Of a stretch of DNA of 64,000 nucleotides, positions 1 through 19,511 are shown piece by piece. Numbering within the stretch: position 1 is the first letter of the stretch; every line of letters starts with the position of its first letter. The notes below the pieces were generated by a model. That model saw nothing but the letters and a program-made list of their open reading frames with translations. It ran no database searches and had not been told where the DNA came from. The translations under genes and the position numbers were made by a program. Origin of the DNA: an uncultured delta proteobacterium (GTDB lineage Bacteria > Myxococcota_A > Polyangia > Polyangiales > Polyangiaceae). The DNA lies in assembly GCA_963764075.1 (NCBI GenBank), contig CAVXQZ010000002.1, positions 76,915 to 140,914 on the forward strand, in the 5' to 3' direction.

Positions 1-44
1 GCCCTATTGACTGGACCAACGCGAAGGGGCAAAGGAAACTCGAT

Positions 45-374
45 ATGGCGAAGAAAGACACCGCGAAGAAGAAGCCTCTGACCAAGAGCGCGCTCCTCCA
101 GGCCGTCACGGACACGGTCGGGGACGGGCTTTCACGAAGACAGGTGACTCAGGTAATCGAGACGCTCGTCAGCGTCGGCCACACGGAGCTGAAGAAGAAC
201 GGCGTGTTCACGCTGCCCGGTTTTGCCAAGTTCGTCGTGGTCAAGAAGCCGGCTCGACCTGCGCGCGAGGGGATCAATCCCTTCACCAAGGAGAAGCAGA
301 AGTTCGCGGCAAAACCCGCCAGCAAGGGCGTGCGCGCAAGACCCGTAAAGGCGATAAAGGACTCGGTTCTCTGA
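45..374 (+). CDS. HU/IHF-family nucleoid-associated DNA-binding protein with a Lys-rich N-terminal tail
   Basis: 109-aa ORF. The core LSRRQVTQVIETLVSVGHTELKKNGVFTLPGFAKFVVVKKPARPAREGINPFTKEK has the HU/IHF beta-arm signature (R-x-G-x-N-P-x-T). N-terminal tail is MAKKDTAKKKP. Confidence 0.85.
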   Translation: MAKKDTAKKKPLTKSALLQAVTDTVGDGLSRRQVTQVIETLVSVGHTELKKNGVFTLPGFAKFVVVKKPARPAREGINPFTKEKQKFAAKPASKGVRARPVKAIKDSVL

Positions 375-585
375 TAAAGCACGCAGCGGCTGATAAACCA
401 TCCGCCCTTCGGGCTCCCATGGCCCCGTGAGCACTGAGCCCGCACCGTCGCCGCGCGCCTTCCGGGCGGCGACGTATTACGCGAGACCATGACCCGCGAC
501 GTACGGGCGGAACGATAGGTGCTACCGAGAACGAAGTTCCGAAGAATGGGAATGCGCGCCATCGCCTGTTGTAGACTGGCCATCG

Positions 586-990
586 ATGTCCAACGCCTTT
601 CGTTCTCAAGTATCTGAGCTCACGAGGTCGCTCGTGGAATCGATCCTGGTGGCGGCTCGGTCGGCTCCCTTGGAGGAGCTCTGGTCCGATCCCCGTGGTA
701 CTCGCCATGAACCCCGTCGCAACGGCGGCGTCGCGGCGAGCAGGCTTCCGGCAGTCGACTGGTCCGCTGGCGATCGCGGTCGGCCTACGCAAGCCGCGGC
801 GAAAACGCTCGAGCTTGTCGTGCTGCTCTTGAGGGGCCAACCGGGGGGCATGCGCGCAGAGTACCTCCGCAAGAAGCTTGGAGTCTCCAAGCCGGAGATT
901 ACGCGGGCTCTCAAACAAGGACTCGAGTCCAAGAAGATCGTCAGCAAAGGTGAGAGACGCGCGACGACCTATTTCGCGGCGGCGCCATAG
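586..990 (+). CDS. hypothetical protein with a C-terminal winged-helix-like module
   Basis: 134-aa ORF. The C-terminus MRAEYLRKKLGVSKPEITRALKQGLESKKIVSKGERRATTYFA looks like an HTH plus wing. No family recognised. Confidence 0.45.
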   Translation: MSNAFRSQVSELTRSLVESILVAARSAPLEELWSDPRGTRHEPRRNGGVAASRLPAVDWSAGDRGRPTQAAAKTLELVVLLLRGQPGGMRAEYLRKKLGVSKPEITRALKQGLESKKIVSKGERRATTYFAAAP

Positions 991-1302
991 CCATAGCGAC
1001 CCTTCTCGGGGCTGCGAGCGACATCGGCCTGCCGCCAACGCTAGGGGCTACCGGGTTTAGCGCCTGCGGTCGAGGGCCAGGTTACAGCCCGTCGCGAGGC
1101 CATTGATCGCGACGAGGTAGGCGAGGGCGGCGAGCGCCAACGGCCTCGAGCCCGAGCACGTTCTCGTCCACCTGCCGGGGCTGAACATCCGGGTCGACCA
1201 CGCGGGGCTCGGCGCCAATCATGCGGCGCTCGAGGTGACGGAAGGCAGGAAGCCCTGGTTTTCACCTCGACATCGAGACAGTGTCGGCCGAGCATCTCGA
1301 AC

Positions 1303-2187
1303 ATGCCCCGCGAGTCGCCGCCCTGGCCGAAGACCTACACGGCGACGGAAGCGCCCAAGGAGGTGCTCGACCTCGCCGCGCGTGTGATGCCGCTTCTCCT
1401 CGCAAGCGACCACGCAACGTGCATCCAACTTCGGAAGCAGTACGCGAGGGCCCGCATCCAACAGGTCGAGCTGACGGGGGCTGGGTTCTTCGTCACCTTC
1501 GAGGTCCCCGCCGACGTCGCACGCACGACGCCCCCGAACCTTCAGGGAGGCGACGTGCACATCCGGGTCGAAGGAGTCGAGCATGGGGCCGGCTGCGTCC
1601 TCTTCGTCCGAGATGGGGTCCTCTCGATGCTGGAGGGCTATACCTACGGCGAGGAATGGCCGGAGCACCCGCTGATCGTCGAGCTTCGGGAGGCGACTCC
1701 GCTTGCGCCGCCCGGCGAGCCAACGCGTCGCTTGATAGACGTGGGCGGACTCGTCGAAGAGACGAGCGTTTGCCTTGCCGTCTACGGCGAGGATCTCGAC
1801 CCCGCAGCCGTCACTGCGCTTCTCGGTTCCTCACCGACCTCCGCGCATCGCAGAGGGGACCGTCGCGGTCCGCGTAGCCCTCCAGCGAAGGGAGGTGGCT
1901 GGTTTCTCGAAGTTCGTGGCAAGGCGCCAGAGGGGCCGGACGAACTCGCGCTCGCTCTCCTCGGTCGCCTGCCGGAGGACGAGAGCGTCTGGATCAAGCT
2001 CTGCGAGTTGTACGAGGTCCAGCTTCGATTCGGCATCCACATGACCGGATGGAATCGAGGCTTCGGCCTATCGCCGGCGACCACGACGAGGGTCGCCAGC
2101 CTGCGCGCCAGCATGGTGTTCAATATCTACGCTTACGATGGCGAAGAAGGCATGGGTCACGATGATCACGATCGTCCGGCACCATAA
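1303..2187 (+). CDS. two-domain hypothetical protein: N-terminal immunity-like domain plus C-terminal DUF4279-like domain
   Basis: 294-aa ORF. The C-terminal half (VCLAVYGEDLDPAAVTALLGSSPTSAHRRGD...WFLEV...LYEVQLRFGIHMTGWNRGFGLSP...MVFNIYAY) follows the DUF4279 pattern. The N-terminal half (ELTGAGFFVTFEVP...GAGCVLFVRDGVLSMLEGYTYGEEWPE) resembles small immunity-type proteins. Confidence 0.6.
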   Translation: MPRESPPWPKTYTATEAPKEVLDLAARVMPLLLASDHATCIQLRKQYARARIQQVELTGAGFFVTFEVPADVARTTPPNLQGGDVHIRVEGVEHGAGCVLFVRDGVLSMLEGYTYGEEWPEHPLIVELREATPLAPPGEPTRRLIDVGGLVEETSVCLAVYGEDLDPAAVTALLGSSPTSAHRRGDRRGPRSPPAKGGGWFLEVRGKAPEGPDELALALLGRLPEDESVWIKLCELYEVQLRFGIHMTGWNRGFGLSPATTTRVASLRASMVFNIYAYDGEEGMGHDDHDRPAP

Positions 2188-2719
2188 CGAGCCTATCGGC
2201 CACCGATTTTTACGTCGCGGCCCCGGCGTCCCCGTGTCCGAGGCTTGCCGGAAGCTTGGGACTACTACTCCCCGAAGAGGCGCTCCGCTCTGCTGTGACG
2301 CGGCTCACCGGAGCGGCGGCAAGCGGACATGTGCCGCGCGATGGCGGTGCCGCGGTTGTAGACGATGACCATGTGCACGAGGAGCTTCAAAGTCCCACCA
2401 CGCTGGCACGTCCGCCCTGGGTCGAAGGCCGCCTCTGAATCGAAGGCGCTATCAGCAAAGTCAGACCGCTTGTCCGCCGGCCCCGCTCACCGGATGCGGG
2501 CAAGTTGGAGTGTGTTCACGCTTGCATCGAAGACATCGACTATCCGCCGAAGCGCGAATCCGATCGCGCGATGGTGCGTCAGTTGGGGACGGGCGCGTGG
2601 ATCGCCTCCCAAATTGGTCGACCAATCGACGAAGACGGTCGGTTGCGGTCAAGCCGATAACGCGTGATCGGTCAAGTCTCGACCCTTGCCGGCTTGCGCC
2701 CGCTTGCACGGCCTACTCG

Positions 2720-2887
2720 CTCCTGCAATGCATTACGGCGCGTCCCATCTTCGCCAGCGCTGCGAAGGACAACGTCGCGTCGCCTCGCGTGCTCGAGAAG
2801 TGCGGCTTCACAGTCCGCGGCTCAGGGAGAGCCTTCGCGAGCGCGCGCGGTGAGGAGATTGACGAGGTTTTTCTAGTGTTCCACTGA
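2720..2887 (+). pseudogene. C-terminal remnant of a GNAT (RimJ/RimL-type) N-acetyltransferase
   Basis: Only the last ~55 codons look GNAT-like (LLQCITARPIFASAAKDNVASPRVLEKCGFTVRGSGRAFASARGEEIDEVFLVFH). The acetyl-CoA-binding part is absent in this frame. A possible frameshifted piece (VSWGRARG) lies in another frame near 2580-2640. Confidence 0.55.
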
Positions 2888-3055
2888 TGACGGTAGTGGC
2901 GTCCCTGGCGAAAGCATTACTAACGGGACCGGGCACCGGCGAAACTGGTGAAAATGGGACCCTCGGGAACCGGCGGCGACACTCTACGGCGGAGCGAAAG
3001 CGTCCTGTTCGAGACCGGTCTATCCAGGCCATCCTCCGGCCCCGAGCCCGACCCC

Positions 3056-3379
3056 TCAGTTGGGCGAAGACGGACCGTGAGGGAAGTCTTTCGCGCGAAG
3101 CCGGTCGCCCCCGGCGATGAGGAAGTGGATGTCCACCGTGCTCTCCGTACGGTCCGGTTGCACCGTGACGTGGATATGTTCTTGAGGGAGGGCGTTCCCT
3201 GGAACGTACCCGAACAACCACACCTCCAGGCAGCTTCGCAGCTCGCGGATGTGCTCGACGTGCCACATGAGCCGATCTCCGAGCGCGCTCATGTTCGCGC
3301 GTATGGCCTTGCACCTGTCCGTGGCTTCGAACCTTTCGCGCAACTCTTGACTGATTCTCGTGGAGTACGTGATGGGCAT
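3056..3379 (-). CDS. hypothetical 107-aa protein, downstream partner of the nuclease-like gene
   Basis: Starts 25 nt after the stop of the 3404-4639 gene on the same strand. Third-codon positions are GC-biased in this frame, while the overlapping plus-strand ORF looks like antisense noise. No family recognised. Confidence 0.5.
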   Translation of the reverse strand: MPITYSTRISQELRERFEATDRCKAIRANMSALGDRLMWHVEHIRELRSCLEVWLFGYVPGNALPQEHIHVTVQPDRTESTVDIHFLIAGGDRLRAKDFPHGPSSPN

Positions 3380-3403
3380 AGGGGAACCTGGTCCAACGAG
3401 AGA

Positions 3404-4639
3404 TTACTTCGGGACGTCGAACGCGAGCACGGTCACAGTAAGCTCCCGGCTCGGGTCGCTCTTGTGAGACAAGACCGCCCGGAAGCGCGTTTCGCCGTTC
3501 GGCTTCTCCTCGCGCTTGAAGTTCGGGTGCGACCGCAGCCCGTCCGGAAGCTTCGCCAGCACCGTTGAGAATTGCGTGTCGCGGTTGAATACGACGATCG
3601 CCGTCTTGGTATCGCGCCACGAGGCGTACCCAAGGAGCTGGTCGATGGTCTCGTGGAACCCCTTAGGACCGCTCCAAAACTTGCACTCGGCGATGAACAC
3701 GTTCTTGCCGCCGTCTCGCACGAGGATGTCCGTCTTGCCCTCGACGTTGAACGTCTCACCGGTCGCCGAACCCTCGTAGTGACCGTTGAGCTGCACGACG
3801 AAGTGCCAGCGAAGGTGCTCCTCACCCAAGGCCGTGAACGCCGACGGGCTACGCTCCAGGACGAGCGCCATGTTCTGCATGACGGTCAAGATGTGCTCGT
3901 AATCGTCGTCGGCTAGCGCGGGCTCTGGTTTGAATGGTGCGCTGCTCGCTACGGGCGGTGGAGCGATCTTTCGCCGGACACTGGGCGCAGCGTACGTGGT
4001 CGGCATGCCCTCCCTTCGCCGCAGCCGATACCCGAGCGAGGCGACCACGCCGTGAGTTTTGAGGAGCCGCGCCCTCCGTTCCTCGACAGAGCGTCTAATT
4101 GCGCGCGGAAGCCGGTTTTTGTTGAGGTCTTCGACCTCCGACGTGATGCTGCGGATGTGGTTACGGATCTGGGCGAGCTGGTTGGTAAGCTGGACTTCCA
4201 CGCCTGCTTCCTGGTTGGCAGGCACAGTGAACGTCAGCACGAGGTCGTTGTCGCGGACCGTCCCACGCGGAGCGTTGAGCGTGAACGTGCCCGGCTGAAA
4301 CTTGAACAGTTCGGCCTCTCCGGTGAAGGGGACGTAGAAGCTAAAGGCCGTCGCCGGGATGGTCGGCTGATGGTCCCCATATTCCCACCTACCGTGCGGT
4401 AGCCGGCTTGTCTCCAGGGTCGCCTCCCTGGTCTCCATCGTGATCTGACTGTCGTCCGCCAGCGAGAGCGGTTCAATCTGGAGCTTCTCCACGAAGTAGG
4501 TGCACAGGTCGTCGAGCGGGGTGTTGAGCAGCCGGTTGCCGTCAAAGGCGTCAACCTCCTTTTCCACGGCTTCTTCCCGCGCACGCAGCGACGCGCTGAG
4601 GTGCCCTTGCGAGAACAAGGGTCTGTCGTCATGCGCCAT
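3404..4639 (-). CDS. predicted PD-(D/E)xK (Mrr-cat / restriction-endonuclease-like) nuclease-domain protein with an unknown ~270-aa N-terminal region
   Basis: The C-terminal GKTDILVRDGGKNVFIAECKFWSGPKGFHETIDQLLGY fits a D...E-x-K core. The ATG at 4639 is preceded by AGGAGG (4646-4651), so it is preferred over the GTG at 4666. The gene ends in a TAA stop. Confidence 0.6.
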   Translation of the reverse strand: MAHDDRPLFSQGHLSASLRAREEAVEKEVDAFDGNRLLNTPLDDLCTYFVEKLQIEPLSLADDSQITMETREATLETSRLPHGRWEYGDHQPTIPATAFSFYVPFTGEAELFKFQPGTFTLNAPRGTVRDNDLVLTFTVPANQEAGVEVQLTNQLAQIRNHIRSITSEVEDLNKNRLPRAIRRSVEERRARLLKTHGVVASLGYRLRRREGMPTTYAAPSVRRKIAPPPVASSAPFKPEPALADDDYEHILTVMQNMALVLERSPSAFTALGEEHLRWHFVVQLNGHYEGSATGETFNVEGKTDILVRDGGKNVFIAECKFWSGPKGFHETIDQLLGYASWRDTKTAIVVFNRDTQFSTVLAKLPDGLRSHPNFKREEKPNGETRFRAVLSHKSDPSRELTVTVLAFDVPK

Positions 4640-5198
4640 TATGATCCTCCTGGCCTCCCGCGGCACTGCTCAGCACGCCGCGCACGTCATGTCCAGTGCC
4701 GGCCTGCTCCACACCGACTAACACGCCGATCCACGACACCTCGTGTGGGCCGTCAATCCTTCTTCGCCTTTGATGGCTGACTGCGTCGCGCTGACGCCCG
4801 TGACCATCCCGGGGCTCGCAGGCGCCCGAGCGGTTTCGATCGCCACCGACGGCGCAGGAAATTTCGCGTCGTCGCCGAGATTGGATGCACGCCACAATCC
4901 ATCGTGCTGGCTCACGGCACCCTCGCGGGCGGTTTAACCCGCACGATTACCGTCGTTCCCCGGGGAATGTCCGCGGCCGTCCAGCCCACCGTCGGGTGGG
5001 CCGCAACGCGTGCCGTGCCGGGCGAGCCACAAAGCTCTTGGGTGGTCAGCTAGATCGCCGCGGGTGGGGGCGCGTTGCACGCGCTCGCGATGCGCTTCGA
5101 CGCCAACAGCGTTGGGGGGAATCCTCGATCCGGGCGCGGCGGCCGGTGCGACGGTCACGTAAGTTGGCCGGACCGTTGAAGCTTGGCGTCCAATCCTT

Positions 5199-6440
5199 TC
5201 ACGGCCCCGACGGGGAGGCTGGCGAAGGGGTCGCATCCGACGTACCGCACGGCGAGATCTTGGTTTCGAGCTGCGTGCGATCGCTCGGCGCCCAGTCGAC
5301 GACGAACGGGTTCGCCTGCCGCTTCATTTGCTCTGCCCGTGGAGGTCGGCGTTCGGCCCGGTTGTCAAGACCGTCGCCGCGTTTCCACCACCCCCGCCAG
5401 CCTGGTCCGAAGAGTCGCTCGATGTCTGCCTTCATCTGTGCGTGAGAAACAGCCGATTCAGCGGCCGGCGCGGATTGCGGCGACGGGGCGCGTGCCTCAC
5501 CGTTGTGGGGGGCCCGAAGGCGTCCGTTGCGCTCGTCGGCGAGCCGCCGGCGCCGGCCATGCTCCACATGGTCTAAGAAGTGGTCGAGCTTGCCCCAGAT
5601 GAAACGAACCGTCGGTGGTCCTTCCTTCGACGCGAGAAACGCGCCTCCAATGGCATCGCGTAGGGCAAGCATCTTCTCACCGCTATTGCCATCGAGCGCG
5701 CTTGCGCATGCGGCCACCAGGGTAACGTCACCCGCGTCAAAATAGCGCGGGGCAGGGCGTGTCGGGTGCTTGCGCGTCATGCGCTCGCTGAGCGCGATCC
5801 GCGCCAGGTCCCGATCCTCCTCGGTGACGGGTGCGGCTTGTTCTTCTTTCGCGTCGTTCGGCGCTCCGACAGCCGGAGCATCGCAAGAAGAAGGTTTAAT
5901 CTGATCTTTCTCTCTGAGTTCCCCGGAAGCGCCTTCCGGTGGCCCACCGGCGTGGTTTTCCGGTGGGTGAGTCGCGGTAGGCGCCAGCGTCCTTGGCGAC
6001 GGGACGTCGGTCCGAAGCGCCTTCGCCCGATCGCGCGGGAAGCGTTCCACGAAGTCTGCGAGCGCGGCGAGCGTCACGAGCCCGGGCGCGTAGAAGATTC
6101 GCACCGATCCGTCCGGTCGCCGTTCGTGCCGCACTCGGATGAAGCCAGCGCGTTCGAGTAAGTCGGCTTGGTCGCGGACGGCGCGGGTCGACCATCCACT
6201 GAAGCGCCCGAGCGTGTCTTGGCTCGGCCACGCCTCGGCGTTGCCCTGCCAGTGGACAGCAATCCCGATGAAGAGCGCCCAAGGCCCTTTGCTCAGTCTC
6301 TGAAACTCGGCATTACGAGCGCGCAGTTCGAGAAGCGCCAGACCGAAGTTGTCTCGAAGTCGAATCCTCTCACGTATAGGAAACACGTCATCGTCGCGCT
6401 CTTCCGGACCGGCCGGGAGAGCGTTTGCTGCACTCAACAT
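5199..6440 (-). CDS. wHTH protein of the replication-initiator/HTH_36 type, typical of integrative elements
   Basis: 413-aa ORF. The N-terminal segment AWPSQDTLGRFSGWSTRAVRDQADLLERAGFIRVRHERRPDGSVRIFY is a winged helix of the kind seen in phage or ICE Rep-like proteins. The rest is low-complexity. Confidence 0.5.
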   Translation of the reverse strand: MLSAANALPAGPEERDDDVFPIRERIRLRDNFGLALLELRARNAEFQRLSKGPWALFIGIAVHWQGNAEAWPSQDTLGRFSGWSTRAVRDQADLLERAGFIRVRHERRPDGSVRIFYAPGLVTLAALADFVERFPRDRAKALRTDVPSPRTLAPTATHPPENHAGGPPEGASGELREKDQIKPSSCDAPAVGAPNDAKEEQAAPVTEEDRDLARIALSERMTRKHPTRPAPRYFDAGDVTLVAACASALDGNSGEKMLALRDAIGGAFLASKEGPPTVRFIWGKLDHFLDHVEHGRRRRLADERNGRLRAPHNGEARAPSPQSAPAAESAVSHAQMKADIERLFGPGWRGWWKRGDGLDNRAERRPPRAEQMKRQANPFVVDWAPSDRTQLETKISPCGTSDATPSPASPSGP

Positions 6441-7093
6441 TGCGTGCGCCCCTCCGCGCCAAGCGGCGCGGCGAAGGGCCTCGAGGAGGGCACACGATCG
6501 CCGATCACGTCCTGCGCGATGAGCGGGCGTGTCCTCTCGGGGCGTTCGTTCCTGAAGCGCGTGGCGCGCTCCATGCGAGCGGCGTCTTCAACGTCGCGTC
6601 GCCTTGGGAGTCGGCGCGCAAACAGTCTTGCGCACGGACAAGCGAACTCCTATGCTTTGGCTCGAAGCGGCGAGTGAAACCACTTCCGAGACAAAGCTCT
6701 CGAACCGGCCTTGTTTGATGCGGGTGGCTCCGCAACGAACAAGGCCGAAGTTCTTTGTGCCACCCGCGCCTAGCTCATGGTGGCCTCCGCGTCGGAGCGC
6801 AGCACGCCCTTGATACGGTGAGCCGGATGCAGCGCGTCAGCGGGGCGGGTGAGCGACGCATCGACGCGCAACGTCTTCGCGGCGACAGCCGGCATCATCG
6901 CGAGAGCGACGTCCCGCTTCGGGATCACCCGTGGGTCGCGCTCATCGTTCGCGATCGAGTAGCACGTCAGTTCCGCCCGTGCTGAACGGGAGGCACCTAC
7001 TGAACGGCTGCCTTCACACCGTTTTTCACACCGTTCGGGTGGCCACTCATAGCGTCGGCTGACCGGACCCGGACAGCAGATCCTCGAGAAAAG

Positions 7094-7138
7094 TGGAGCG
7101 GGAGAAGGGATTTGAACCCTCGACGTCCACCTTGGCAA
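7094..7138 (-). pseudogene. 3' half of tRNA-Gly(GCC), from the anticodon loop to CCA, with no matching 5' half (att-type remnant)
   Basis: The minus strand reads TTGCCAA-GGTGG-ACGTC-GAGGG-TTCAAAT-CCCTT-CTCCCGC-T-CCA. That is anticodon loop (GCC), stem 3' strand, variable loop, T-arm, acceptor 3' strand, U73 discriminator and CCA. The upstream 37 nt lack a D-arm and do not pair with the acceptor strand. Confidence 0.75.
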
Positions 7139-7499
7139 ATTGGATGCGGCATTCAACGGGATGCGCGCTCCCTGCGCGCCAGAACACGCAGCGAAGATTC
7201 CGGAGACACGCTGGTCGCCGCGCCGCGCGCCTCATTGAGGCCGTCGGCGGGAGCAGAGGTTTGGCTGAGCTCAGGAGGCGGACCAGATTCGAAAGGAGCT
7301 CTGGGCTCTTGGGCGTGATCCGCAGGGGCAGGCGGTTCTGCAGGCCGGGCAGAATTTGCTCTTTCCCCGCGCGTGACACCGCTCGTCTGCGCCAGCCTTC
7401 GCGCCTCGAGCTCGCGAGCCAGCTGAACCACTACGTCGAATCGACCGGCGGCGGCCGCTCGCCCCAGCGCTTCGACCAGCGTCATCGAGATGGGGTCGT

Positions 7500-7557
7500 G
7501 ATTGCCCGATGATTGCCCGATGCCGGTCTCGCCTCGTGCGATCTCGGGCGATCTCGT
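7500..7557. repeat. two adjacent short tandem duplications (11 bp x2, then 10 bp x2)
   Basis: gattgcccgat is repeated at 7500-7521 and gcgatctcg(g/t) is repeated at 7538-7557. The 11-bp duplication shifts the reading frame of the ORF that crosses it. Confidence 0.85.
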
Positions 7558-7613
7558 GTCGCCTTGGTGCTTGTTTGCTCGGTTTTCCGAAAAGTCGGCC
7601 TCGGTGTCCTGAG

Positions 7614-7652
7614 TTTTAAATCCGCTGCGTCTGCCGATTCCGCCAAGGGGCC
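7614..7652 (-). pseudogene. 5' half of tRNA-Leu(UAA), from the acceptor to the end of the anticodon loop, with the 3' half missing
   Basis: The minus strand reads GGCCCCT-TG-GCGGAATCGGCAGACGC-A-GCGGA-TTTAAAA, near-identical in pattern to bacterial tRNA-Leu(UAA) 5' halves. The sequence after the loop (CTCAG...) cannot close the anticodon stem, and no T-arm follows. Confidence 0.7.
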
Positions 7653-7803
7653 GAAGAACGTTGGCTTCTGTGCTCGCGACTAGGCCGCGCCGGCACAGGA
7701 TCGTTGAGGAATCGGTCGCGCACAAGACTTGATCGGAAACCGGCGTTGGCGCGCGCTCAGGACCCGGAGCGGCGCGCCAGGTCGCATTCGCCTCCCCGCG
7801 CTC

Positions 7804-8943
7804 CTACGCGGCGACCTTCAGCACGACCTTCGTCCAGCCGTTCTCGCGCGCGTCAAAATGGGCATACGCATCGGGCGCTGCGTCGAGTCGCAGCCGATGC
7901 GACACGACGAACGAGGGTCGGGCGCGCCCCGCGTGAATCAAGTCTCGGAGCTCGCGATTGTATGCCTTGACGTTGGCTTGCCCCGAGCCGAGCCTGAGGC
8001 CCTTCGCGAAAAAGGCGCCAAAGTCGAACGCAATGCGGCCCTTTCTCATGAGCGGGTCCGGGCCCTTGGGGTCCTCCGGCACGAACACTCCGACGACCCC
8101 GATGACGCCCGTCGCCCGGACCGACTGCACGAGCCGGTTCATCGTCGCGTTCGGCTCCTCGTGTCCCGACGGGTCGTGCGCCTGCCAGCCGACGCACTCG
8201 CAACCTTTGTCCGCGCCGAACCCATGTGTGAGCTCGCGGATGCGCTCGACCGGGTCCACCTCGGAGTCGTCAATCGCGATGGCGCCGATGTCTTGCGCGA
8301 GGGCAAGACGATCCGGATGTCGGTCGACCACCATCACCTGCTTGGCCCCTTGAATCATCGCCGAGTATGCGGCCATGAGGCCGACCGGACCGGCACCGTA
8401 GATGACGAGCGATTCGCCAGGCCGGAGCTCCGCCAAACGGGTCGCGTGCCAGCCCGTCGGAAAGATGTCGGCGAGCATGACGTAATCGTCTTCTTTCTCC
8501 GCCGCGTCCTCGGGAAGGCGAAGGCAATTGAAGTCGGCGAAAGGCACGCGCAAAAGCTCGGCTTGCCCTCCGTTGTACGGTCCCATCTCCGCGTACCCGT
8601 ACGCGGCGCCTGCCATGCCCGGGTTGGTCGTGAGGCAGAAGCCCGTCTGACCCTTCTCGCAGTTGCGGCAAAATCCGCACGCGATGTTGAAGGGGAGGCA
8701 AACCCGATCGCCCACCTTGACACGAACGATCGCGTCGCCGACTTCGACGATTTCGCCGAGGTTCTCGTGGCCGAGAATTTTCCCAGGCTCGACGCTCGTC
8801 CGCCCTTCGTACATGTGCAGGTCCGACCCGCAGATGTTGGTGCTCGTGATCCGAATCAGCGCATCGGTTGGACGTTCGATGCGCGGATCAGGCACGTCCT
8901 CGATCGTGACTTTGCGGGGTCCGTCATAAACGAGAGCTTTCAT
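7804..8943 (-). CDS. fdhA: Zn-dependent, glutathione-independent formaldehyde dehydrogenase-like alcohol dehydrogenase
   Basis: MKALVYDG...ITSTNICGSDLHMYEGRT...GHENLGEIVEVG...PFNIACGFCRNCEKGQTGFCLTTNPGMAGAAYGYAEMGPYNGGQAELLRVPFADFNCLRLP closely follows the P. putida FdhA pattern. Start taken at the internal ATG at 8943. Confidence 0.85.
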   Translation of the reverse strand: MKALVYDGPRKVTIEDVPDPRIERPTDALIRITSTNICGSDLHMYEGRTSVEPGKILGHENLGEIVEVGDAIVRVKVGDRVCLPFNIACGFCRNCEKGQTGFCLTTNPGMAGAAYGYAEMGPYNGGQAELLRVPFADFNCLRLPEDAAEKEDDYVMLADIFPTGWHATRLAELRPGESLVIYGAGPVGLMAAYSAMIQGAKQVMVVDRHPDRLALAQDIGAIAIDDSEVDPVERIRELTHGFGADKGCECVGWQAHDPSGHEEPNATMNRLVQSVRATGVIGVVGVFVPEDPKGPDPLMRKGRIAFDFGAFFAKGLRLGSGQANVKAYNRELRDLIHAGRARPSFVVSHRLRLDAAPDAYAHFDARENGWTKVVLKVAA

Positions 8944-9080
8944 GGTGCCTCCTCCGGCAATCCTTGAATGCGCTCGTACGCAAACCGCGAGCCCAATGGG
9001 ACCCAGCTGGACCCGCCTACGGGTGGTCCAGCGGCCGCGCCGCAAAGACGCGCGGACTCGAATGCCAGTTCATTGGGGCT

Positions 9081-10058
9081 TCATTGCGGCTTGTCCGTTC
9101 CCATCGCGTGGTCGAGCTCTTGTTTGACTTCCTTCTGCGTGGGATCGATCGGAAAGGCGTGCGCCTCGCGCGCCTGTGGGTTGTCGAACGCGAGCGATAC
9201 TTTGTAGAGTTCGAACCTCCCGTCGGCCGCGGTCTCGCGGCATCGGTCGCGCAGCGCCTGCATGTCGCGATCGCTCATCCGCTCGAAGCCGTGCGCGACT
9301 TTGAGGTTCGCACGAAGCTTGTCGACCGTCTCCATGCCGCAAATCGTTGTGGCCACCGGCAGACTCATCGCGTAGCGGAGCAGCTCTTCGGGGGTCGCGA
9401 TCTTCTTTTGGATGGGCGCGGCCTTGCCGGTCATCGGCTTCATCCCGAGCACCCCGATGGACCGCTTGCGGCACTCGGGCAGGACCTTGGTCTCGAAGCT
9501 GCGGTAGCTCGCGTCGAACGCGTTCAGCGGGAATTGACACGTGTCCCACGGGTAACCGCGGGTGATCATCTCGTAATGAACGTCCGGGCTCTTGTGTCCC
9601 GTAAACCCGACAAAGCGGGCTTTCCCGGAGCGCTTGGCCTCGTCGAGCGCCTCGATGACGCCGCCTTTTCTGTAGGCGAGCGCCGGATCGTCGTCGAAGA
9701 CTACGCCGTGGACTTGCCACACGTCCAAGTGATCGGTCCGAAGGCGGCGAAGCGATTCGTCCAGCATCTTCAGCGCGAGCGAGGCGTCTCGTCCGTGCGT
9801 GCAGACTTTGGTCATCAACATGACCTTGTCGCGCCGCCCGCCGGTGGATAGGGCGCGACCCATCCAGTCCTCGCTGCGCCCGTTGTTGTACTCCCAGCAG
9901 TTGTCGAAGAAATCGACTCCTCCGTCGATCGCCTCGCCCACGATTCGATCGGCCTCGGCGAAGCTCGGCGCGTCGCCGAGGTGGTGGCCGCCGACGGCGA
10001 GTGCGGATACCGTCGCGCCGGTCTTTCCGAGCGGGCGGCGGGGCATGGCGGCGCTCAT
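9081..10058 (-). CDS. aldo/keto reductase
   Basis: 325-aa ORF with RPLGKTGATVSALAVGGHHLG...FFDNCWEYNNGRSE...LRRLRTDHLDVWQVH...FVGFTGHK. It has a 4-nt overlap with the upstream paralogue. Confidence 0.85.
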   Translation of the reverse strand: MSAAMPRRPLGKTGATVSALAVGGHHLGDAPSFAEADRIVGEAIDGGVDFFDNCWEYNNGRSEDWMGRALSTGGRRDKVMLMTKVCTHGRDASLALKMLDESLRRLRTDHLDVWQVHGVVFDDDPALAYRKGGVIEALDEAKRSGKARFVGFTGHKSPDVHYEMITRGYPWDTCQFPLNAFDASYRSFETKVLPECRKRSIGVLGMKPMTGKAAPIQKKIATPEELLRYAMSLPVATTICGMETVDKLRANLKVAHGFERMSDRDMQALRDRCRETAADGRFELYKVSLAFDNPQAREAHAFPIDPTQKEVKQELDHAMGTDKPQ

Positions 10059-11131
10059 AGCGGAAGCTCCAGTTGGGTGGGATACCCATGTTGTTCGCGT
10101 CCCACTTTCGCGTCGTAGTGTGTCGTCGTCTTGTAGAGTTCGTTGTGCCCGTCGGCAGCCGCCCCCCGAACCCGATCGCGGAGGGCCTGCATCTCTTCGG
10201 GCCGCATCGGCTCGAATCCTCGGGCGATCGCAAGGTTCTGGCGAAGAATGTCGAGCGCGTCGACGCCGCTGACGGTCGTCGCGATCCCGGGGACGCTCAT
10301 CGCATACCGGAGCGCCTCTTGCGCGCTGACCACGCCTTTGCGAACGGGATCGCCCGCGCCGCCCAGGCTCTTCATGCCGATGGGCGCGATGCCGCGCGTG
10401 AGGAGCTCGGGCAGAACGCGCTGCTCGAAGCTCCGAAATGTGCCGTCGAAGCAGTTGATGGGCATCTGGACGGTATCGAAGGGAAAGCCATGCGCGAGCA
10501 TTCTCAGGTGAATGTCGGGATGCTTGTGGCCGGTGAAGCCGACGAAGCGGGTTTTGCCGTCCTTCTTCGCGCGCTCCAGGGCATCGATGACTCCGCCCGG
10601 GGCGAAATGCAAATCAGGGTCGTTATCGTAAATGCATTCGTGCACCTGCCAAAGGTCGAGGTGGTCGGTCTGAAGGCGGCGCAGCGAGTCTTCGAGCTGC
10701 TGCATCGCCACGTCGGCCTTGCGGCCGTGGGTGCACACTTTCGTCATCAAGAAGACTTGGTCCCGCTTGCCTTGAAGGGCGCGCCCGAGAATTTCTTCGC
10801 TCTTGCCGTCGTGGTACTCCCACGCGTTGTCGAAGAAGGTGACGCCCGCGTCGATCGCCTGGGCGACAATCGCCAGTGCCTCATCGGGGTCGCGCACGTC
10901 GCCGAGGTGAGAGCCGCCGATGCCGAGGACCGACACGGTGGCGCCAGTTTTCCCGAGAGGGCGTCGAGGGACGGACGACGGCGACGCCGCGGGGGGCTGC
11001 GGGTCTGGGGTCGCTCGAATCGAGTTCGTGTCGCCCTGAGCCCGCGAGCAACCGGCGAGAGCGGCCGCGGCGCTGGAGGCAAGGAACCTTCGACGGGTGT
11101 GCTCGGAGCGCATGCGCGAGTGCGTGTGCAA
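10055..11131 (-). CDS. aldo/keto reductase paralogue with a Tat-type signal and lipobox
   Basis: The N-terminus RRRFLASSAAAALAGC is a twin-arginine signal plus lipobox. The body is parallel to the neighbouring AKR (FFDNAWEYHDGKSE...LRRLQTDHLDLWQVH...FVGFTGHK). Confidence 0.8.
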   Translation of the reverse strand: MHTHSRMRSEHTRRRFLASSAAAALAGCSRAQGDTNSIRATPDPQPPAASPSSVPRRPLGKTGATVSVLGIGGSHLGDVRDPDEALAIVAQAIDAGVTFFDNAWEYHDGKSEEILGRALQGKRDQVFLMTKVCTHGRKADVAMQQLEDSLRRLQTDHLDLWQVHECIYDNDPDLHFAPGGVIDALERAKKDGKTRFVGFTGHKHPDIHLRMLAHGFPFDTVQMPINCFDGTFRSFEQRVLPELLTRGIAPIGMKSLGGAGDPVRKGVVSAQEALRYAMSVPGIATTVSGVDALDILRQNLAIARGFEPMRPEEMQALRDRVRGAAADGHNELYKTTTHYDAKVGREQHGYPTQLELPL

Positions 11132-11345
11132 GGCGCATTCTCAGCTGAGCGTTGCCCCGTCTCGAAACGTCTCGAACGTCGCGGGGGGGGTTCTGACCCA
11201 AAAGGACCACGAGCTTTCCCGCGTCCCGACTGTGGCGTGCTTGCGGTGACTGTGGCGAGAGCGCCTGGCGACGATTTTGCGCCCGGGCTCAGGTTCTTCG
11301 CGCACGGGGGCGCGCGGGGAGCGACGAGACCCATGCACAGCCCTC

Positions 11346-13076
11346 TCAGGCCGCGAGATTCGCGAGGTATCGGAGGCCGGAGGCGATCGGCTGACGGTGA
11401 TCGAAATCGACCTCGAGGCGCTCGAGCGCGCCGCGCAGTGCGCCTGCGGTCGGGCCGCGGTCCCGCGCCTTGATCAGGCTTTCGAGAAGGTTCCAGCGCA
11501 GCAGCCATTCGTCGGGGTAATCGCGATCGAGCTCGGCAATCACGCGTCGGAATTCTTCGGCGATCTCCCCTCGGTCCGCGCGATGCGCCCGCTCGGCTCG
11601 CACGTAGAGATCGATCAACCGGAGCTCCCGCTCCGGGCGCGCGCGCGGCCGAGGGACTCGAACGATCGGGGGTGCCGTGCTCGGAAGGTACCCGGGATCA
11701 ACGGACCCCGCGTGCACCGAGACCGGATCACCGGCCGCGACGAGCGAATGATTCGCAACCAGGCGAGGCGGCAGCCCCGGGAGGGAAATCCGCACATCGG
11801 CGAGATCCAGGTGCATCAGCCGCCCGTCGGCGCGACGCACCGTTCGGACAAATCGCCCTTCCACACGGGCGCCAGTGGCGAATTCGAAGGTGACGCGCTC
11901 GGTCGAGGGGTCGCGCGATCGGAGTATCTCGTCGTCACCGAGGTGCTCGGGGGCGGCGCCGCCCGCGAGTCGTCCGACGACGACGCACGCCCCGTCTTGC
12001 CAACGAAGGGCCGTAGGGTCCGGCATCGAGCCGTCCCACACGAAAGCCCCCGGACCCTCGAAGATGAGCCATGCCGGCGACGAAAGACTCGGGCCTGCGC
12101 TCGCAAGTACGCCCATCGCGCAGGCCCCCGATGAAAAGTGCACACTCGCAAGCTCCCGACTCCTTGTTGCTCGCGAAAGCGCCACGTCTCCTCCCACGTG
12201 CACCGCCAGCTCGCGCGAGACCCGATTGAGAAGGTCGTGGAGGGCCTCGAACGACGGCGTCACGAAGAGTCGCGGCTGCGGCCGTGTAATGTCGTAGGTC
12301 ACGTCCATGCAACCCGCGTCGAGCGGCAGCTTTGCGACGTCTTGCGCGTGACACGAGTGGCTTTCCCAGAGAGACGAAAGAAGTCCCGCGCCGTATATTT
12401 TGTAATCGTCGACCCGGCCCACTAGGCCATATTCGGCGGTCCACCAGTACAGCCTCGACAGCCGCGCGGCCTCGCTCGGTTCGGACGCACCGCCCGTGGC
12501 GGCCCCGAGCTCCGCTTCGATTTGCGCGAGTTCGTCCGGGCCCCGCGCCTGGTCCTCCATCGCCTCGCTGAGCGCGTAAATCGCACGATATACTCGGTCT
12601 TCCGCGGGAAGCGTGAACGCCTTCCGCCCGAGATCTCCGATGCGCCGCAAGTATGCGGCGTAAACCGGGTCCGGAAGGATGGGCGCGTGCCCAGCGGCCT
12701 CGTGGATGATGTCCGGCGCCGGCGTATAGACCAGATGCTCTCGTGTTCGCATTTCGCCGGCGATAGGCAAGATTCCGCACGCCTGAAATTCCTGGAAGGC
12801 GCGCGGCGGGATGAACCCGTCGACGCAGACCGCGCCCCAGCCGAAGCGCGCGAGCTTTTCGTTCATTTCTCCGATGCTCGGAATGCGCTCGACCGATATG
12901 CCGGTCGCGGCCAAGCCTTCCTTGTAGGCGGGGTGCGCCGTACGGACCAGCGTCGAGTGCGTCTGGAGCAGAACGAACCTCCAGACTGCCTGGTCGATCG
13001 CCGTGTATTGCGAATAGTCCTGTTCGACGACGAACCGGCGCAGGTGAGCGGGCACTTTCAGCCCCACGTCATCCAT
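11346..13076 (-). CDS. phhA: biopterin-dependent aromatic amino-acid hydroxylase (phenylalanine 4-monooxygenase), long form with a ~300-aa C-terminal extension
   Basis: The N-terminal ~270 aa include EHLVYTPAPDIIHEAAGHAPIL (iron-ligand His pair) and YWWTAEYGL. It lies in a Tyr-catabolism neighbourhood. Confidence 0.8.
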   Translation of the reverse strand: MDDVGLKVPAHLRRFVVEQDYSQYTAIDQAVWRFVLLQTHSTLVRTAHPAYKEGLAATGISVERIPSIGEMNEKLARFGWGAVCVDGFIPPRAFQEFQACGILPIAGEMRTREHLVYTPAPDIIHEAAGHAPILPDPVYAAYLRRIGDLGRKAFTLPAEDRVYRAIYALSEAMEDQARGPDELAQIEAELGAATGGASEPSEAARLSRLYWWTAEYGLVGRVDDYKIYGAGLLSSLWESHSCHAQDVAKLPLDAGCMDVTYDITRPQPRLFVTPSFEALHDLLNRVSRELAVHVGGDVALSRATRSRELASVHFSSGACAMGVLASAGPSLSSPAWLIFEGPGAFVWDGSMPDPTALRWQDGACVVVGRLAGGAAPEHLGDDEILRSRDPSTERVTFEFATGARVEGRFVRTVRRADGRLMHLDLADVRISLPGLPPRLVANHSLVAAGDPVSVHAGSVDPGYLPSTAPPIVRVPRPRARPERELRLIDLYVRAERAHRADRGEIAEEFRRVIAELDRDYPDEWLLRWNLLESLIKARDRGPTAGALRGALERLEVDFDHRQPIASGLRYLANLAA

Positions 13077-13138
13077 ATTGACAAAGGCTAGCGCGAAGAG
13101 CGGGGTGCGACCACCGGCCGCCCCGCGGACGCGCTGCT

Positions 13139-14122
13139 ATGATGGCTAGCGTGCGTCTCGCCACCCTCCGCGACGGTTCGCGCGACGGATCGCTCATCGT
13201 CGTCGACTCCGCAGCGCGGCGATTTGCGTCGGCCGCTCACGTCGCGCCGAATCTGCAAAGCGCGCTCGATGATTGGGACCGGATCAGCCCCGCGCTCGAG
13301 GCGCTCTCGCGCGAACTCGAGTCCGGTCGCGCTCCGGCCGATCCCGTGGCACTCCCAGCGCTCTCGGCGCCGCTGCCCCGGGCGTACGAGTGGATCGACG
13401 GATCGTGCTACTTGAACCATGTCCTTCTCGCCCGCAAAGCGCGGGGGGCCGACCCGCCGCCCGGGTTCGAAGTGGACCCGCTCGTCTACCAGGGCGGCTC
13501 TGGCGTCCTTCTCGCGGCGACCGATCCGCTCGTTTTGCCGGATGCGGCGTGGGGGCTCGATTTCGAGGCGGAGATCTGCGTCGTCTTGGGCGACGTTCCC
13601 CGAGGGGTCACGGCCGATGACGCGTCGTCCTGCGTGCGGTTGATGATGCTGGCCAACGACGTCACGTACCGAAACCTCGTCCGGCCCGAGCTCGAAAAAG
13701 GCTTCGGTTTTTTGGTGTCGAAGCCGGCGACGGCGTTCTCGCCCTTCGCCGTCACGCCCGCGGAGCTCGGTCCGGCTTGGCGCCAGGGTCGTGCGTTTCT
13801 TCGGATGCGCACGGCCTACAATGGGGATGTCGTCGGCGATGCCGAGACCGGGCCCGAAATGCACTTTTCGTTCTTCGACCTGATTGCCCACATCGCGAAG
13901 ACTCGCTCGCTGACGGCGGGCACGATCCTGGGCGGCGGAACCGTGTCCAATCGCGATCGCGGGCGGGGAGTCTCCTGCCTCGTCGAGCGCCGCATGATCG
14001 AGACGCTCGAGCTCGGAGCTCCCCGGACTCCCTTCATGACGCGGGGAGACAGGGTTCGGATCGAGGCATTCGACGACTCCGGCAGAAGTGTGTGCGGGGC
14101 GATCGATCAGCGCGTAGTGTGA
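13139..14122 (+). CDS. fumarylacetoacetate hydrolase (FAH) family protein
   Basis: 327-aa ORF with GLDFEAEICVVLG...ANDVTYRNL...FDLIAHIAKTRSLTAGTILGGGT. It sits next to hppD and hmgA. Confidence 0.8.
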   Translation: MMASVRLATLRDGSRDGSLIVVDSAARRFASAAHVAPNLQSALDDWDRISPALEALSRELESGRAPADPVALPALSAPLPRAYEWIDGSCYLNHVLLARKARGADPPPGFEVDPLVYQGGSGVLLAATDPLVLPDAAWGLDFEAEICVVLGDVPRGVTADDASSCVRLMMLANDVTYRNLVRPELEKGFGFLVSKPATAFSPFAVTPAELGPAWRQGRAFLRMRTAYNGDVVGDAETGPEMHFSFFDLIAHIAKTRSLTAGTILGGGTVSNRDRGRGVSCLVERRMIETLELGAPRTPFMTRGDRVRIEAFDDSGRSVCGAIDQRVV

Positions 14123-14206
14123 GAGGCGGGGAGGGCGCGGCAGAGCCGCGAGGCGCGGCGGCTGGGTATCCTTGTAGGAGCGCCATGGCGCCATTAAGCT
14201 AATACG

Positions 14207-15364
14207 ATGAGCGAAGCCGGCCCGATCGGCATTCTCGGTATCGAAGCGATTCATTATTACGTGCGCGACATCGAGCGCAGTCGGCGTTTTTACACGCAAC
14301 AGCTCGACTTCTCCGAGATCGGCGCCAGCGGGGCCGAGCTCACGAGCGCGGGGCGCCAGCGGTCGCTCGTGTTTCAGGCCGGCGCCTGCCGCATCGTCTG
14401 TTCTTCGCCCGCGGGGGAAGGGGGTCGGGCACACCGGTATCTCAAGAAGCATCCAGACGGGATTGGCAGCATCCTGTTCGAAGTCGAAGACATCGATCGC
14501 GCCTTCTCCACGCTCGAGGCCCGCGGAGGAACTCCGGTCGACGAGGTTCGAGTCACCGAATGCGACAGAGGCACATTTCGCTCGTTCGTCATGACGACCC
14601 CGATCGGCGACACGACTTTTCGATTCGTGGAGCGACGCGGGGAGTTTCCTCTCTATCCCGGCTTCGAGTCGTACGCCGTGGCGACCGGCGGCAAGAACGC
14701 GTTCGGGTTCGCGCGCTTCGACCACGTCACGAGCAACTTCGAGACGATGTCGCCGGCGCTCTTGTGGATGGAGCACGTTCTTGGGTTCGAGCGCTTTTGG
14801 CAGGTCCAGTTTCACACCGACGACGTCGCGCGGCTCGCCGATCGAAGCGGGTCCGGCTTGCGGTCGGCCGTCATGTGGGACCCGGCGAGCGGGGTGAAGT
14901 TCGCCAACAACGAGCCCCAGCGCCCGAACTTCAAGGCTTCGCAAATCAACGTGTTCCACGAAGATCATCGCGGCGACTCCGTGCAGCACGTGGCCCTCAC
15001 GGTATCGGACATCGTGGAGGCCGTGCGGGGCCTCCGAAGCCGGGGCGTCGAATTCATGAGCACGCCCAAGTCGTATTACGACGCCCTCGCCGAGCGGATG
15101 AGGGGCCTCGGGGTGGGCGCGATGTCCGAGCCGCTCGCCGCGCTCGAAGAGCTGCAGATCCTCGCCGACGGCGACGGTCCGGGTCGCTACCTCTTGGAGA
15201 TTTTCCTCAAGGACTCGGCGGGTCTCTACGCGAGCCCCGATGCGGGGCCCTTTTTCTACGAGATCATCCAGCGTCACGGCGACAGCGGCTTCGGGGCGGG
15301 GAACTTCCGTGCCCTCTTCGAGAGCATCGAGCGAGGCCAGCTCGCCGACGAGGGCCGCCGATGA
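14207..15364 (+). CDS. hppD: 4-hydroxyphenylpyruvate dioxygenase
   Basis: 385-aa ORF with two VOC modules. C-terminal signature is QHVALTVSDI...FFYEIIQRHGDSGFGAGNFRALFESIE. Confidence 0.9.
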   Translation: MSEAGPIGILGIEAIHYYVRDIERSRRFYTQQLDFSEIGASGAELTSAGRQRSLVFQAGACRIVCSSPAGEGGRAHRYLKKHPDGIGSILFEVEDIDRAFSTLEARGGTPVDEVRVTECDRGTFRSFVMTTPIGDTTFRFVERRGEFPLYPGFESYAVATGGKNAFGFARFDHVTSNFETMSPALLWMEHVLGFERFWQVQFHTDDVARLADRSGSGLRSAVMWDPASGVKFANNEPQRPNFKASQINVFHEDHRGDSVQHVALTVSDIVEAVRGLRSRGVEFMSTPKSYYDALAERMRGLGVGAMSEPLAALEELQILADGDGPGRYLLEIFLKDSAGLYASPDAGPFFYEIIQRHGDSGFGAGNFRALFESIERGQLADEGRR

Positions 15365-16542
15365 TCGAACGCGCGTCCGCCGGTCGCGTGCCGCCCAAAC
15401 CGCACCTCGTCTTCACGTCGGATGCAGGCGAGTTTTGTTACGAAGAGTGCGTCACGCGCGCGGGTTTCGAGGGCCCGTATTCCATCCTTTATCACCGAAA
15501 CCCGCCACACCACGCCGAGCCGACGACAGCCGCATGGACTTGCCGCGCGCCCGTCGCCGAGCCGGACCGGGGGTTGCTTCGCCGCCACTACCGATGCCTG
15601 GAGGTCCGCTCGGCGGGTGGGCCCATCGCGGCGCGCGTCCCCCTTCTCTTCAACGAGGACGTCGTCATCGGGTTCGCGCGGCCCACTGCGCCGGAGCCCG
15701 CGTACTTCGCGAACGGCGACGGCGACGACATCTTCTTCATCCACCGGGGTGCCGGGGTCCTCCGGTCGGTGTTCGGCGACCTGCGCTTCGGAGCGGGTGA
15801 CTACGTCTACGTGCCGAAGGGGATTGTCCACCGGTTCATTCCCGCGCCAGGGACCCTCCAGGCGTGGCTGTCGGTCGAGTGCAGGTCGGGGGTCGGGATC
15901 CCGTCGAAGTATCGCAATGGCGTCGGGCAGCTGAGGATGGATGCGCCGTATTCGCACCGCGACTTTCGGAAGCCCGAGTTCGTGGGTCCGGTCGACGAGG
16001 AGATTCGCGACATCGTCGTCAAACGCGGCGATGTGTATTACGGATTCCGATCGCCCCATCCGCCCCTCGATGTCGTCGGCTGGGACGGCGCCCTTTACCC
16101 GTGCGTCTTTCCGATCCTCGCGTTTCAAGCGCGGGTCGGGCAGGTCCATCTTCCGCCGAACGTGCACGCGACGTTCGAGGCAGGCGGCGCCCTACTCTGC
16201 AGCTTCGTTCCGCGTCCGCTCGACTACCATCCTGCGGCAAACCCCTGCCCATTTCCGCACTCGTCGGTCGACGTAGACGAAGTGCTCTTCTACGCGAACG
16301 GGGCGTTCGGCTCCCGTCGCGGAATCGCCGAGGGAAGCCTGTCGCATCATCCGGCCGGGATTGCCCACGGGCCGCACCGAGGAGCGTACGAGGCGGCGCC
16401 GGGGAAGGCGCACACCGAAGAGCTCGCGGTGATGATCGACTGCGCAAGGCCGCTGAGGCGCACGCCCGAAGCGCGCGAGGCCGAAGATCTCGAGTATCAC
16501 GCGAGCTTTGCCGAAGGCGGGCCGGGCACGAGAACGGCGTAG
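15361..16542 (+). CDS. hmgA: homogentisate 1,2-dioxygenase (cupin-type)
   Basis: The ATG at 15361 overlaps the hppD stop (ATGA). Motifs: FCYEECVTRAGFEGPYSILYHRNPP, GDYVYVPKGIVHRF, HPAGIAHGP. The long upstream part of the tracked ORF (from 14560) is out-of-gene read-through. Confidence 0.75.
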   Translation: MIERASAGRVPPKPHLVFTSDAGEFCYEECVTRAGFEGPYSILYHRNPPHHAEPTTAAWTCRAPVAEPDRGLLRRHYRCLEVRSAGGPIAARVPLLFNEDVVIGFARPTAPEPAYFANGDGDDIFFIHRGAGVLRSVFGDLRFGAGDYVYVPKGIVHRFIPAPGTLQAWLSVECRSGVGIPSKYRNGVGQLRMDAPYSHRDFRKPEFVGPVDEEIRDIVVKRGDVYYGFRSPHPPLDVVGWDGALYPCVFPILAFQARVGQVHLPPNVHATFEAGGALLCSFVPRPLDYHPAANPCPFPHSSVDVDEVLFYANGAFGSRRGIAEGSLSHHPAGIAHGPHRGAYEAAPGKAHTEELAVMIDCARPLRRTPEAREAEDLEYHASFAEGGPGTRTA

Positions 16543-16607
16543 AGACCTCGTGTCGTTCTTCGATCGAACGGTGGGGCGGGGGAACGCGGCCGAACGAAGA
16601 GGCCCCA

Positions 16608-17444: not shown

Positions 17445-17528
17445 GTGCGCGGACTAGCACGCCGACCACCCGAATAGGAGAGTACGGCCGAGCGGACGCG
17501 GGGGGGGCTGCTCAGTCATCTCGGCCGC

Positions 17529-17576
17529 GCTCTCGCCCATCGATTTCGCCCGGCTCTCGCCCATCGATTTCGCCCA
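17529..17576. repeat. perfect-but-one 24-bp tandem duplication in the divergent intergenic region upstream of hemD
   Basis: gctctcgcccatcgatttcgccc(g/a) occurs twice back to back. Each unit contains the ATCGAT palindrome. Confidence 0.9.
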
Positions 17577-17661
17577 TTGAAACGGCTGGGAAACATCGCT
17601 CGATGTACATAGACTCGCGCTGGTAATGGCCACGCTTGGGCGGCCAGGCCGTAGGGGGTAA

Positions 17662-19442: not shown

Positions 19443-19511
19443 CGGCCAGTCTGCGCCGAGTCCGGAGGGCGCGCTCTTGGTCTCAATCACGTGGGTGAGG
19501 CCGGGCTGGTC

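Follow-up and report, generated by a model that had tools for sequence, protein, structure and literature searches.

Two-gene segment of the window

The 64,000-nucleotide (nt) stretch of contig CAVXQZ010000002.1 analyzed here (the window) carries a two-gene segment, in which an intact gene of PDC-S54, a family of phage defence candidates (PDCs), is followed by a gene for a 107-amino-acid (aa) protein. The features needed at the outset are these:

3404..4639, minus strand: intact PDC-S54 gene encoding 411 aa and ending in a TAA stop (3406-3404); called from the open reading frame (ORF) and its translation
4646..4651, minus strand: Shine-Dalgarno sequence AGGAGG, 6 nt 5' of the ATG of the PDC-S54 gene; read from the sequence
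3056..3379, minus strand: 107-aa accessory gene, 24 nt past the PDC-S54 stop on the same strand; rare, uncatalogued family

The 411-aa ORF, its Shine-Dalgarno sequence, its TAA stop and the numbering of residues D304, E318 and K320, all given in an earlier note on this DNA, were confirmed from the sequence. The same note had placed a 107-aa ORF downstream on the same strand, which is correct, with a gap of 25 nt, which is in fact 24 nt. The ATG of the 411-aa ORF lies at 4639-4637; an alternative GTG at 4666 would give a protein of 420 aa (nine further residues), and the ATG is preferred because close homologues start with MARDD... at this position. The segment had also been described as less GC-rich than the core genes. 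At 0.622 its GC content is indeed low for the window (mean 0.672, standard deviation 0.024) and ranks among the lowest 0.6% of windows of equal size. GC at third codon positions is ordinary, at 0.82 in the PDC-S54 gene and 0.79 in the 107-aa gene.

The 411-aa protein is a PDC-S54 member

A PADLOC search of the 411-aa protein returned PDC-S54 alone (PDLC05036; E 8.2e-147, 488 bits), with residues 5-410 aligned to positions 4-407 of the 410-position profile. The tool classes PDC-S54 as a single-gene system. Pfam and NCBIfam searches with the 411-aa and 107-aa proteins gave no match, and the 411-aa protein matched phrog_9664 at E 2.5e-5. By sequence, the 411-aa gene is a further intact copy of PDC-S54, a family already catalogued as candidate defence. 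In Payne et al. (bioRxiv 10.1101/2024.01.29.577857), the PDCs are 145 ‘phage defence candidates’, called untested by the authors, and they owe their status to members embedded in BREX, DISARM or type I restriction-modification (RM) operons. A study in which some PDCs were tested left PDC-S54 out (10.1101/2024.09.26.614923).

More than 6,300 homologues of PDC-S54 were found, nearly all of them ~410 aa long and every one labelled ‘hypothetical’. At least 584 loci occur in species-representative genomes, with 43–50% identity to the window protein. The family is present in Proteobacteria, Chloroflexota, Cyanobacteria, Poribacteria, Nitrospirota, Bacillota and the candidate phyla radiation (CPR) among bacteria, in Bathyarchaeia, Promethearchaeota and Methanolobus among archaea, and on 24 plasmids, in 2 phage records and on 12 IMG/VR contigs. 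Such a taxonomic spread is as expected of a horizontally traded gene. With thousands of homologues in bacteria and archaea, PDC-S54 is among the most widespread candidate immune genes without any test; the window copy itself adds little past one more intact example.

Domain architecture and probable nuclease core

An AlphaFold2 (AF2) model of the 411-aa protein, built on 41 homologues, reached a mean predicted local distance difference test (pLDDT) score of 84 and divides the protein into three parts:

4034..4639, minus strand: N-terminal module (aa 1-202), in which an alpha/beta domain leads into a helix of 56 residues (aa 147-202); AF2 pLDDT mostly 84-96
3911..4033, minus strand: Pro/Arg-rich linker (aa 203-243), predicted disordered; AF2 pLDDT 40-60
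3407..3910, minus strand: C-terminal PD-(D/E)xK-type domain (aa 244-411), with D304, E318-x-K320 and Q334-xxx-Y338

The N-terminal region of ~270 aa had first been read as matching nothing recognized, in agreement with the absence of any Pfam, NCBIfam or PDB sequence match for aa 1-202 and of any Foldseek match at E<0.001 in PDB or BFVD. The linker is near-invariant across phyla, from bacteria to archaea, at T215, P219, V221, R223, P227, P229, P238-E-P240 and L242 of the 41-sequence alignment, which suggests an interface or regulatory segment and not a passive tether. Both the module and this conserved ‘disordered’ tether are without structural precedent.

In the C-terminal domain, D304, E318-C-K320, Q334 and Y338 are invariant in the 41 homologues, which come from different phyla; the codons of the presumed catalytic residues lie at 3730-3728 (D304), 3688-3686 (E318) and 3682-3680 (K320). 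The model places a helix at 273-287, a strand at 305-309 directly preceded by D304, a strand at 312-321 carrying E318 and K320, a helix at 325-338 carrying Q334 and Y338, and then a strand at 345-352. Judged by secondary-structure order alone, and not by coordinates, the predicted succession of elements fits a restriction-endonuclease-like core. A PD-(D/E)xK nuclease core is thus probable by motif and model, with no formally significant match; it is rated only probable because Foldseek gave nothing significant and the family alignment, used as a profile against PDB sequences, returned no match. Foldseek matches below the E threshold (Pol-beta-type nucleotidyltransferases, a ‘restriction endonuclease’ and Vsr) were set aside.

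The core had been called Mrr-cat-like. Its PD-(D/E)xK character stands, and the Mrr_cat assignment (PF04471) was rejected: the protein gave no match to it at E≤1, and the family is not among the 25 listed of 31 families matched when the 41 homologues were scanned with Pfam at E≤10. The likeness to Mrr_cat is confined to the generic D...(D/E)xK core. The weak matches and the QxxxY motif point instead to a core that is, by motif, probably HsdR_N/RecB-like. Other sub-threshold Pfam matches were pPIWI_RE_REase in 2 of the 41 homologues and SduA_C in one (E 0.072).

Neighbourhoods of PDC-S54 homologues

The genes adjacent to PDC-S54 were compared at 78 genome loci and proved heterogeneous, with no conserved neighbour; the largest neighbour cluster comprised 9 loci. 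Recurrent neighbours are type I RM R subunits (9 loci), S subunits (8) and M subunits (4), type II methyltransferases (4), HmaB/HmaC and an Mrr-like PDC-S02 protein; found at single loci were Ppl, a PDC-S46 protein, Cas1, a CAP12-type TIR protein, GmrSD, HEPN and NYN. At several loci the PDC-S54 gene sits between hsdS and hsdR, and at one (L063) between HmaB and HmaC. A relative with 71% identity (L082) adjoins a DISARM-like helicase/MZB/PLD set together with two methyltransferases. Among the plasmid copies, that of a Thauera plasmid has a broken type I RM region around it, together with a RelE/HigA pair, and that of the R. tropici CIAT 899 plasmid is surrounded by insertion sequence (IS) elements and a HipA pair. 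Two small genes that follow the latter copy were considered as relatives of the 107-aa gene and rejected, no relationship being found.

By gene content, these neighbourhoods match the ‘single-gene, embedded’ class. The horizontal acquisition that had been proposed is also supported. Plasmids and prophages carry homologues, and others reside in islands of RM, Hma and further defence genes; the suggested check of homologue neighbourhoods thus found adjacency to defence genes and mobile genetic elements, including type I RM and Hma loci. In the window, PDC-S54 is accompanied by genes for a HU-like protein, a DUF4279 protein, a GNAT remnant and an HTH_36 protein. These island genes were considered as recurring companions of other PDC-S54 loci, and no recurrence was seen.

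The 107-aa gene

Comparison of the 107-aa gene with its orthologue in locus L081 revealed 19, 14 and 56 differences at codon positions 1, 2 and 3, respectively; of the codon changes, 44 are synonymous and 27 non-synonymous. Because this substitution pattern is typical of coding sequence, the ORF is, on comparative sequence grounds, a real gene under purifying selection. No Shine-Dalgarno sequence or promoter of its own is visible. As no terminator-like or sigma-70-like site was found between the two genes, in a scan that is weak in a genome of 62–67% GC, the 107-aa gene is probably co-transcribed with the putative nuclease gene.

The family is rare: a search of 5.8 billion proteins gave 4 close homologues, and one of 1.84 billion proteins gave 12 clusters at 50% identity. 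A metagenome scan added locus L112 alone, and neither the INPHARED phages nor the IMG/VR contigs yielded a copy. The 107-aa protein had no match in Pfam, NCBIfam, PADLOC, PHROGs or a PDB profile search. Its AF2 model, built on 13 sequences (pLDDT 88, predicted template modelling score 0.78), shows two helices on a five-stranded antiparallel sheet, for which the top Foldseek matches in PDB were cystatin-like de novo designs at a non-significant E of 0.09.

Linkage of the two genes and other contexts of the small family

PDC-S54 is followed by a small gene of this family on four contigs, which represent three independent contexts: the window, the L081 and JGI contigs (orthologue P0008, 68% identical) and L112 (P0007, 69%). 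The two genes share a strand and are separated by 24–36 nt in the window, L081 and L112, and they occur in this order on the JGI contig too. Similarity among the pair-bearing loci covers exactly the two genes and ends at both sides; because of this confinement, the pair behaves as a unit within the sub-clade.

The linkage is not a general one, as the small gene is lacking at some 100 further PDC-S54 loci. A search with a hidden Markov model (HMM) of the 107-aa family was negative for 80 genome loci and for five near relatives (P0004, P0005, P0009, P0010 and P0011), as was tblastn with the 107-aa protein for 15 plasmid, phage and viral PDC-S54 loci. The regulator- or antitoxin-like small partner once postulated for the nuclease therefore does not accompany the family, and the conservation of the 107-aa ORF beside homologues holds in the narrow sub-clade and at none of the other loci searched. 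The relatives lacking the small gene are equally close, at 71–72% identity for P0004/P0005 and 66–71% for P0009/P0010, and a tree of the closest sequences joins P0008, which has the small gene, and P0011, which lacks it, as sisters, so that presence is patchy even in the closest clade. In near relatives the slot 3' of PDC-S54 holds an unrelated 87-aa ORF, a DUF2158 gene (twice) or a gene on the opposite strand. On this sequence comparison, the slot directly behind PDC-S54 seems to exchange small genes in this clade. The DUF2158 gene, of 78 aa, was located at 5879-6115 of L084 and at 5716-5952 of the P0010 JGI contig, behind nucleases that are 66–71% identical.

The small family also occurs behind other genes. 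On 13 contigs, with an integrase near, distant members start 6 nt past the gene of a CAP12-TIR protein (382 aa, matching PADLOC PDC-S35) and are followed by a SprT-like gene; elsewhere the family comes immediately after a split type IIG-like methylase/ResIII pair. Further members were found beside an MNT/HEPN-like pair, beside a GH25 lysozyme and in an array of small co-directional ORFs. The TIR protein was considered as a possible carrier of the PDC-S54 N-terminal module, and nothing in common was found; a general antitoxin or partner role is unsupported because the TIR protein shares nothing with PDC-S54. Since its family also follows unrelated defence-type genes, the small gene is better seen as a lineage-specific add-on or co-passenger: either a portable modulator behind unrelated effectors or an independent cargo in the same hot spots. 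It is the sole new element at the locus.

A conserved four-gene string near an integrase was observed at 4846-7602 of L085 (also in L086-L088). It encodes the 382-aa CAP12-TIR/PDC-S35-like protein (4846-5991), a 110-aa relative of the small protein after a 6-nt gap, a 136-aa SprT-like protein from the adjacent gene, and a 256/283-aa protein matching phrog_19381. By gene content, the string looks like an uncatalogued multi-gene variant of a TIR candidate system.

Comparison with known systems

The window protein resembles PDC-S54 as catalogued by PADLOC in its length of ~410 aa, in the same invariant motifs and in the mobile, defence-island lifestyle of its homologues. It differs in having a 107-aa gene behind it, normally not found in the family, and in neighbours that are not recognizable defence genes.

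With HSDR_N the domain shares D...ExK and QxxxY in like order and spacing, hhalign placing D304/E318xK320/Q334xxxY338 on HsdR D147/E161xK163/Q178xxxY182. Unlike type I R subunits, PDC-S54 lacks a helicase/translocase motor and has its putative nuclease at the C-terminus, behind a module of unmatched fold, and the similarity is sub-significant.

Shedu (SduA) is a single-protein defence system that combines a variable N-terminal part with a C-terminal PD-(D/E)xK nuclease and has spread horizontally. PDC-S54 would be comparable in standing alone and in joining a non-catalytic N-terminal module to a C-terminal nuclease of predicted restriction fold, and Shedu-like single-protein nucleases offer, by analogy, its closest functional counterpart. 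Membership in Shedu was rejected, given the single SduA_C match mentioned above and no match to a PADLOC Shedu model at E≤1. A type II toxin-antitoxin pair was likewise rejected, since the small gene is not consistently adjacent across PDC-S54 loci.

Interpretation and proposed mechanism

Together, our results indicate that the locus probably carries an intact, horizontally acquired PDC-S54 gene for a single-gene candidate anti-phage or anti-mobile-element nuclease, to which the 107-aa gene has been joined as a lineage-specific, non-core add-on. The earlier note is partly supported by this outcome: its observation is confirmed and its interpretation upheld in part. The stand-alone effector it proposed corresponds to a catalogued single-gene candidate anti-phage family in the PADLOC run. 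The Foldseek check it suggested for both proteins gave no significant match, whether to a nuclease or to a non-nuclease fold or housekeeping family.

We hypothesize that the N-terminal alpha/beta module and its long helix form a sensing and/or oligomerization part, which the conserved Pro/Arg-rich tether joins to the C-terminal nuclease, and that module and tether would hold the nuclease inactive in uninfected cells. The N-terminal module would sense a cue from a phage or from foreign DNA and so trigger the nuclease; the C-terminal domain would then cut DNA as a Mg2+-dependent DNase, and the invader might be restricted or the infection aborted. The PDC-S54 nuclease would require no dedicated partner. 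In the small sub-clade, the 107-aa gene forms an inherited two-gene unit with it and would act as a modulator or travel as a mere co-passenger.

Several observations weigh against this interpretation. A literature search for ‘PDC-S54’ found no paper naming the family, and no recognizable defence genes were found beside PDC-S54 in the window. Foldseek with the full-length model gave no match at E<0.001 in PDB and BFVD. The sub-threshold Pfam match to HSDR_N is weak and limited to 7 of the 41 homologues (best E 0.017), and hhalign of the family against HsdR N-termini, taken from type I R subunits of loci neighbouring PDC-S54, aligned the D, ExK and QxxxY motifs at E 0.023 with a low probability of 2%. 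Finally, the conserved tight spacing of the pair in three unrelated contexts means that the small protein could matter in the sub-clade.

This last point leads to a different reading, in which the sub-clade carries a two-component module and the nuclease is bound by the 107-aa protein, be it an antitoxin, an inhibitor or a regulator that responds to a trigger. The tight same-strand spacing and constant gene order, the similarity limited to exactly two genes and the purifying selection on both genes between the window and L081 are all in its favour, as are the small-protein relatives 6 nt behind the PDC-S35-like TIR gene and directly behind the type IIG-like RM pair. We nonetheless consider it unlikely. 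The effectors 5' of the small family are mutually unrelated, which makes specific binding to each of them unlikely, and the family is also found away from any effector, beside the MNT/HEPN-like pair or the GH25 lysozyme; moreover, the small gene went undetected by the HMM in the 80 genome loci and in equally close relatives, including P0011, the sister of a pair-bearing protein, and by tblastn in all 15 loci from plasmids, phages and viruses. The heterogeneity of contexts (nuclease, TIR, RM pair, toxin-antitoxin pair, GH25 lysozyme, array of small co-directional ORFs), combined with the variable slot 3' of PDC-S54 among near relatives, would suit a 107-aa gene that is independent mobile-element cargo, e.g., a small anti-defence or regulatory protein functionally unlinked to the nuclease. 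This explanation is possible if doubtful: three contexts preserve the pair as a unit, the small gene lacks a visible Shine-Dalgarno sequence or promoter of its own, and the family is missing from INPHARED phages, IMG/VR contigs and PHROG matches.

Another explanation concerns PDC-S54 itself, which might not be an immune gene and might instead encode a nuclease serving its carrier mobile elements in recombination, maintenance or exclusion of competitors. Its candidate defence status rests on guilt by embedding alone; the gene occurs on plasmids and prophages, often adjoining IS elements and toxin-antitoxin pairs, and the window copy lies beside a Rep-like HTH_36 gene inside a segment possibly bounded by direct repeats. 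This explanation is improbable, because PDC-S54 is repeatedly embedded in operons of type I RM and Hma systems, adjoins other defence candidates and has no constant association with genes for replication, transfer or integration. As for the small family, a wider proposal is that the 107–110-aa proteins are a portable accessory of defence effectors, serving as modulator, immunity or adaptor proteins that tune or gate PDC-S54, the PDC-S35-like TIR protein and the type IIG-like RM pair, with the window holding a two-component variant of PDC-S54; this we regard as quite unlikely. Under the preferred reading of PDC-S54 as a single-gene candidate with an add-on, the small gene would be of interest in either role. 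If it modulates the nuclease, it would provide a natural switch for studying how PDC-S54 is kept silent, and if it has no modulating role, it would exemplify the variable small genes that accumulate behind defence genes.

Flanking features

One further feature lies 5' of the PDC-S54 start:

4667..4679, minus strand: 13-mer GGCGTGCTGAGCA, spotted by eye in upstream sequences

By the same by-eye comparison, GGCGTGCTGAGCA is common to the window and L112 (upstream of 237), the remaining upstream DNA being unrelated. It may be a candidate regulatory element, such as an operator or promoter.

The segment had been placed between a GNAT remnant and a Rep-like gene. Both flanks are there, with weak Pfam matches: the ‘GNAT remnant’ shows only an Acetyltransf_3 tail match (E 0.007), and the ‘Rep-like’ gene an HTH_36 match (E 3e-4). 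An exact 16-nt direct repeat, CAACGTCGCGTCGCCT, was noted at 2770-2785 and 6589-6604, where shuffling gives an expectation of 0.01 matches. It brackets 3.8 kb containing the tail of the GNAT remnant, the 107-aa gene, PDC-S54 and the HTH_36 ‘Rep-like’ gene. No similarity past the 16 nt of the two copies and no integrase inside the bracketed 3.8 kb were found; the repeat may be an att-like scar. ARAGORN over 1-20000 and Rfam (E≤1) over 1-10000 detected no tRNA and no tRNA fragment, at 7094-7652 included.

The HTH_36 ORF (5199-6440, minus strand) encodes 413 aa, and its relatives are ~350 aa long and cover 85% of the ORF, for which reason the true start is probably further in. The sequencing runs containing the segment are soil metagenomes, and the window probably derives from a soil Myxococcota MAG. 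The named relatives of the HTH_36 protein belong to Polyangiaceae and Labilithrix, and one relative is 93% identical.

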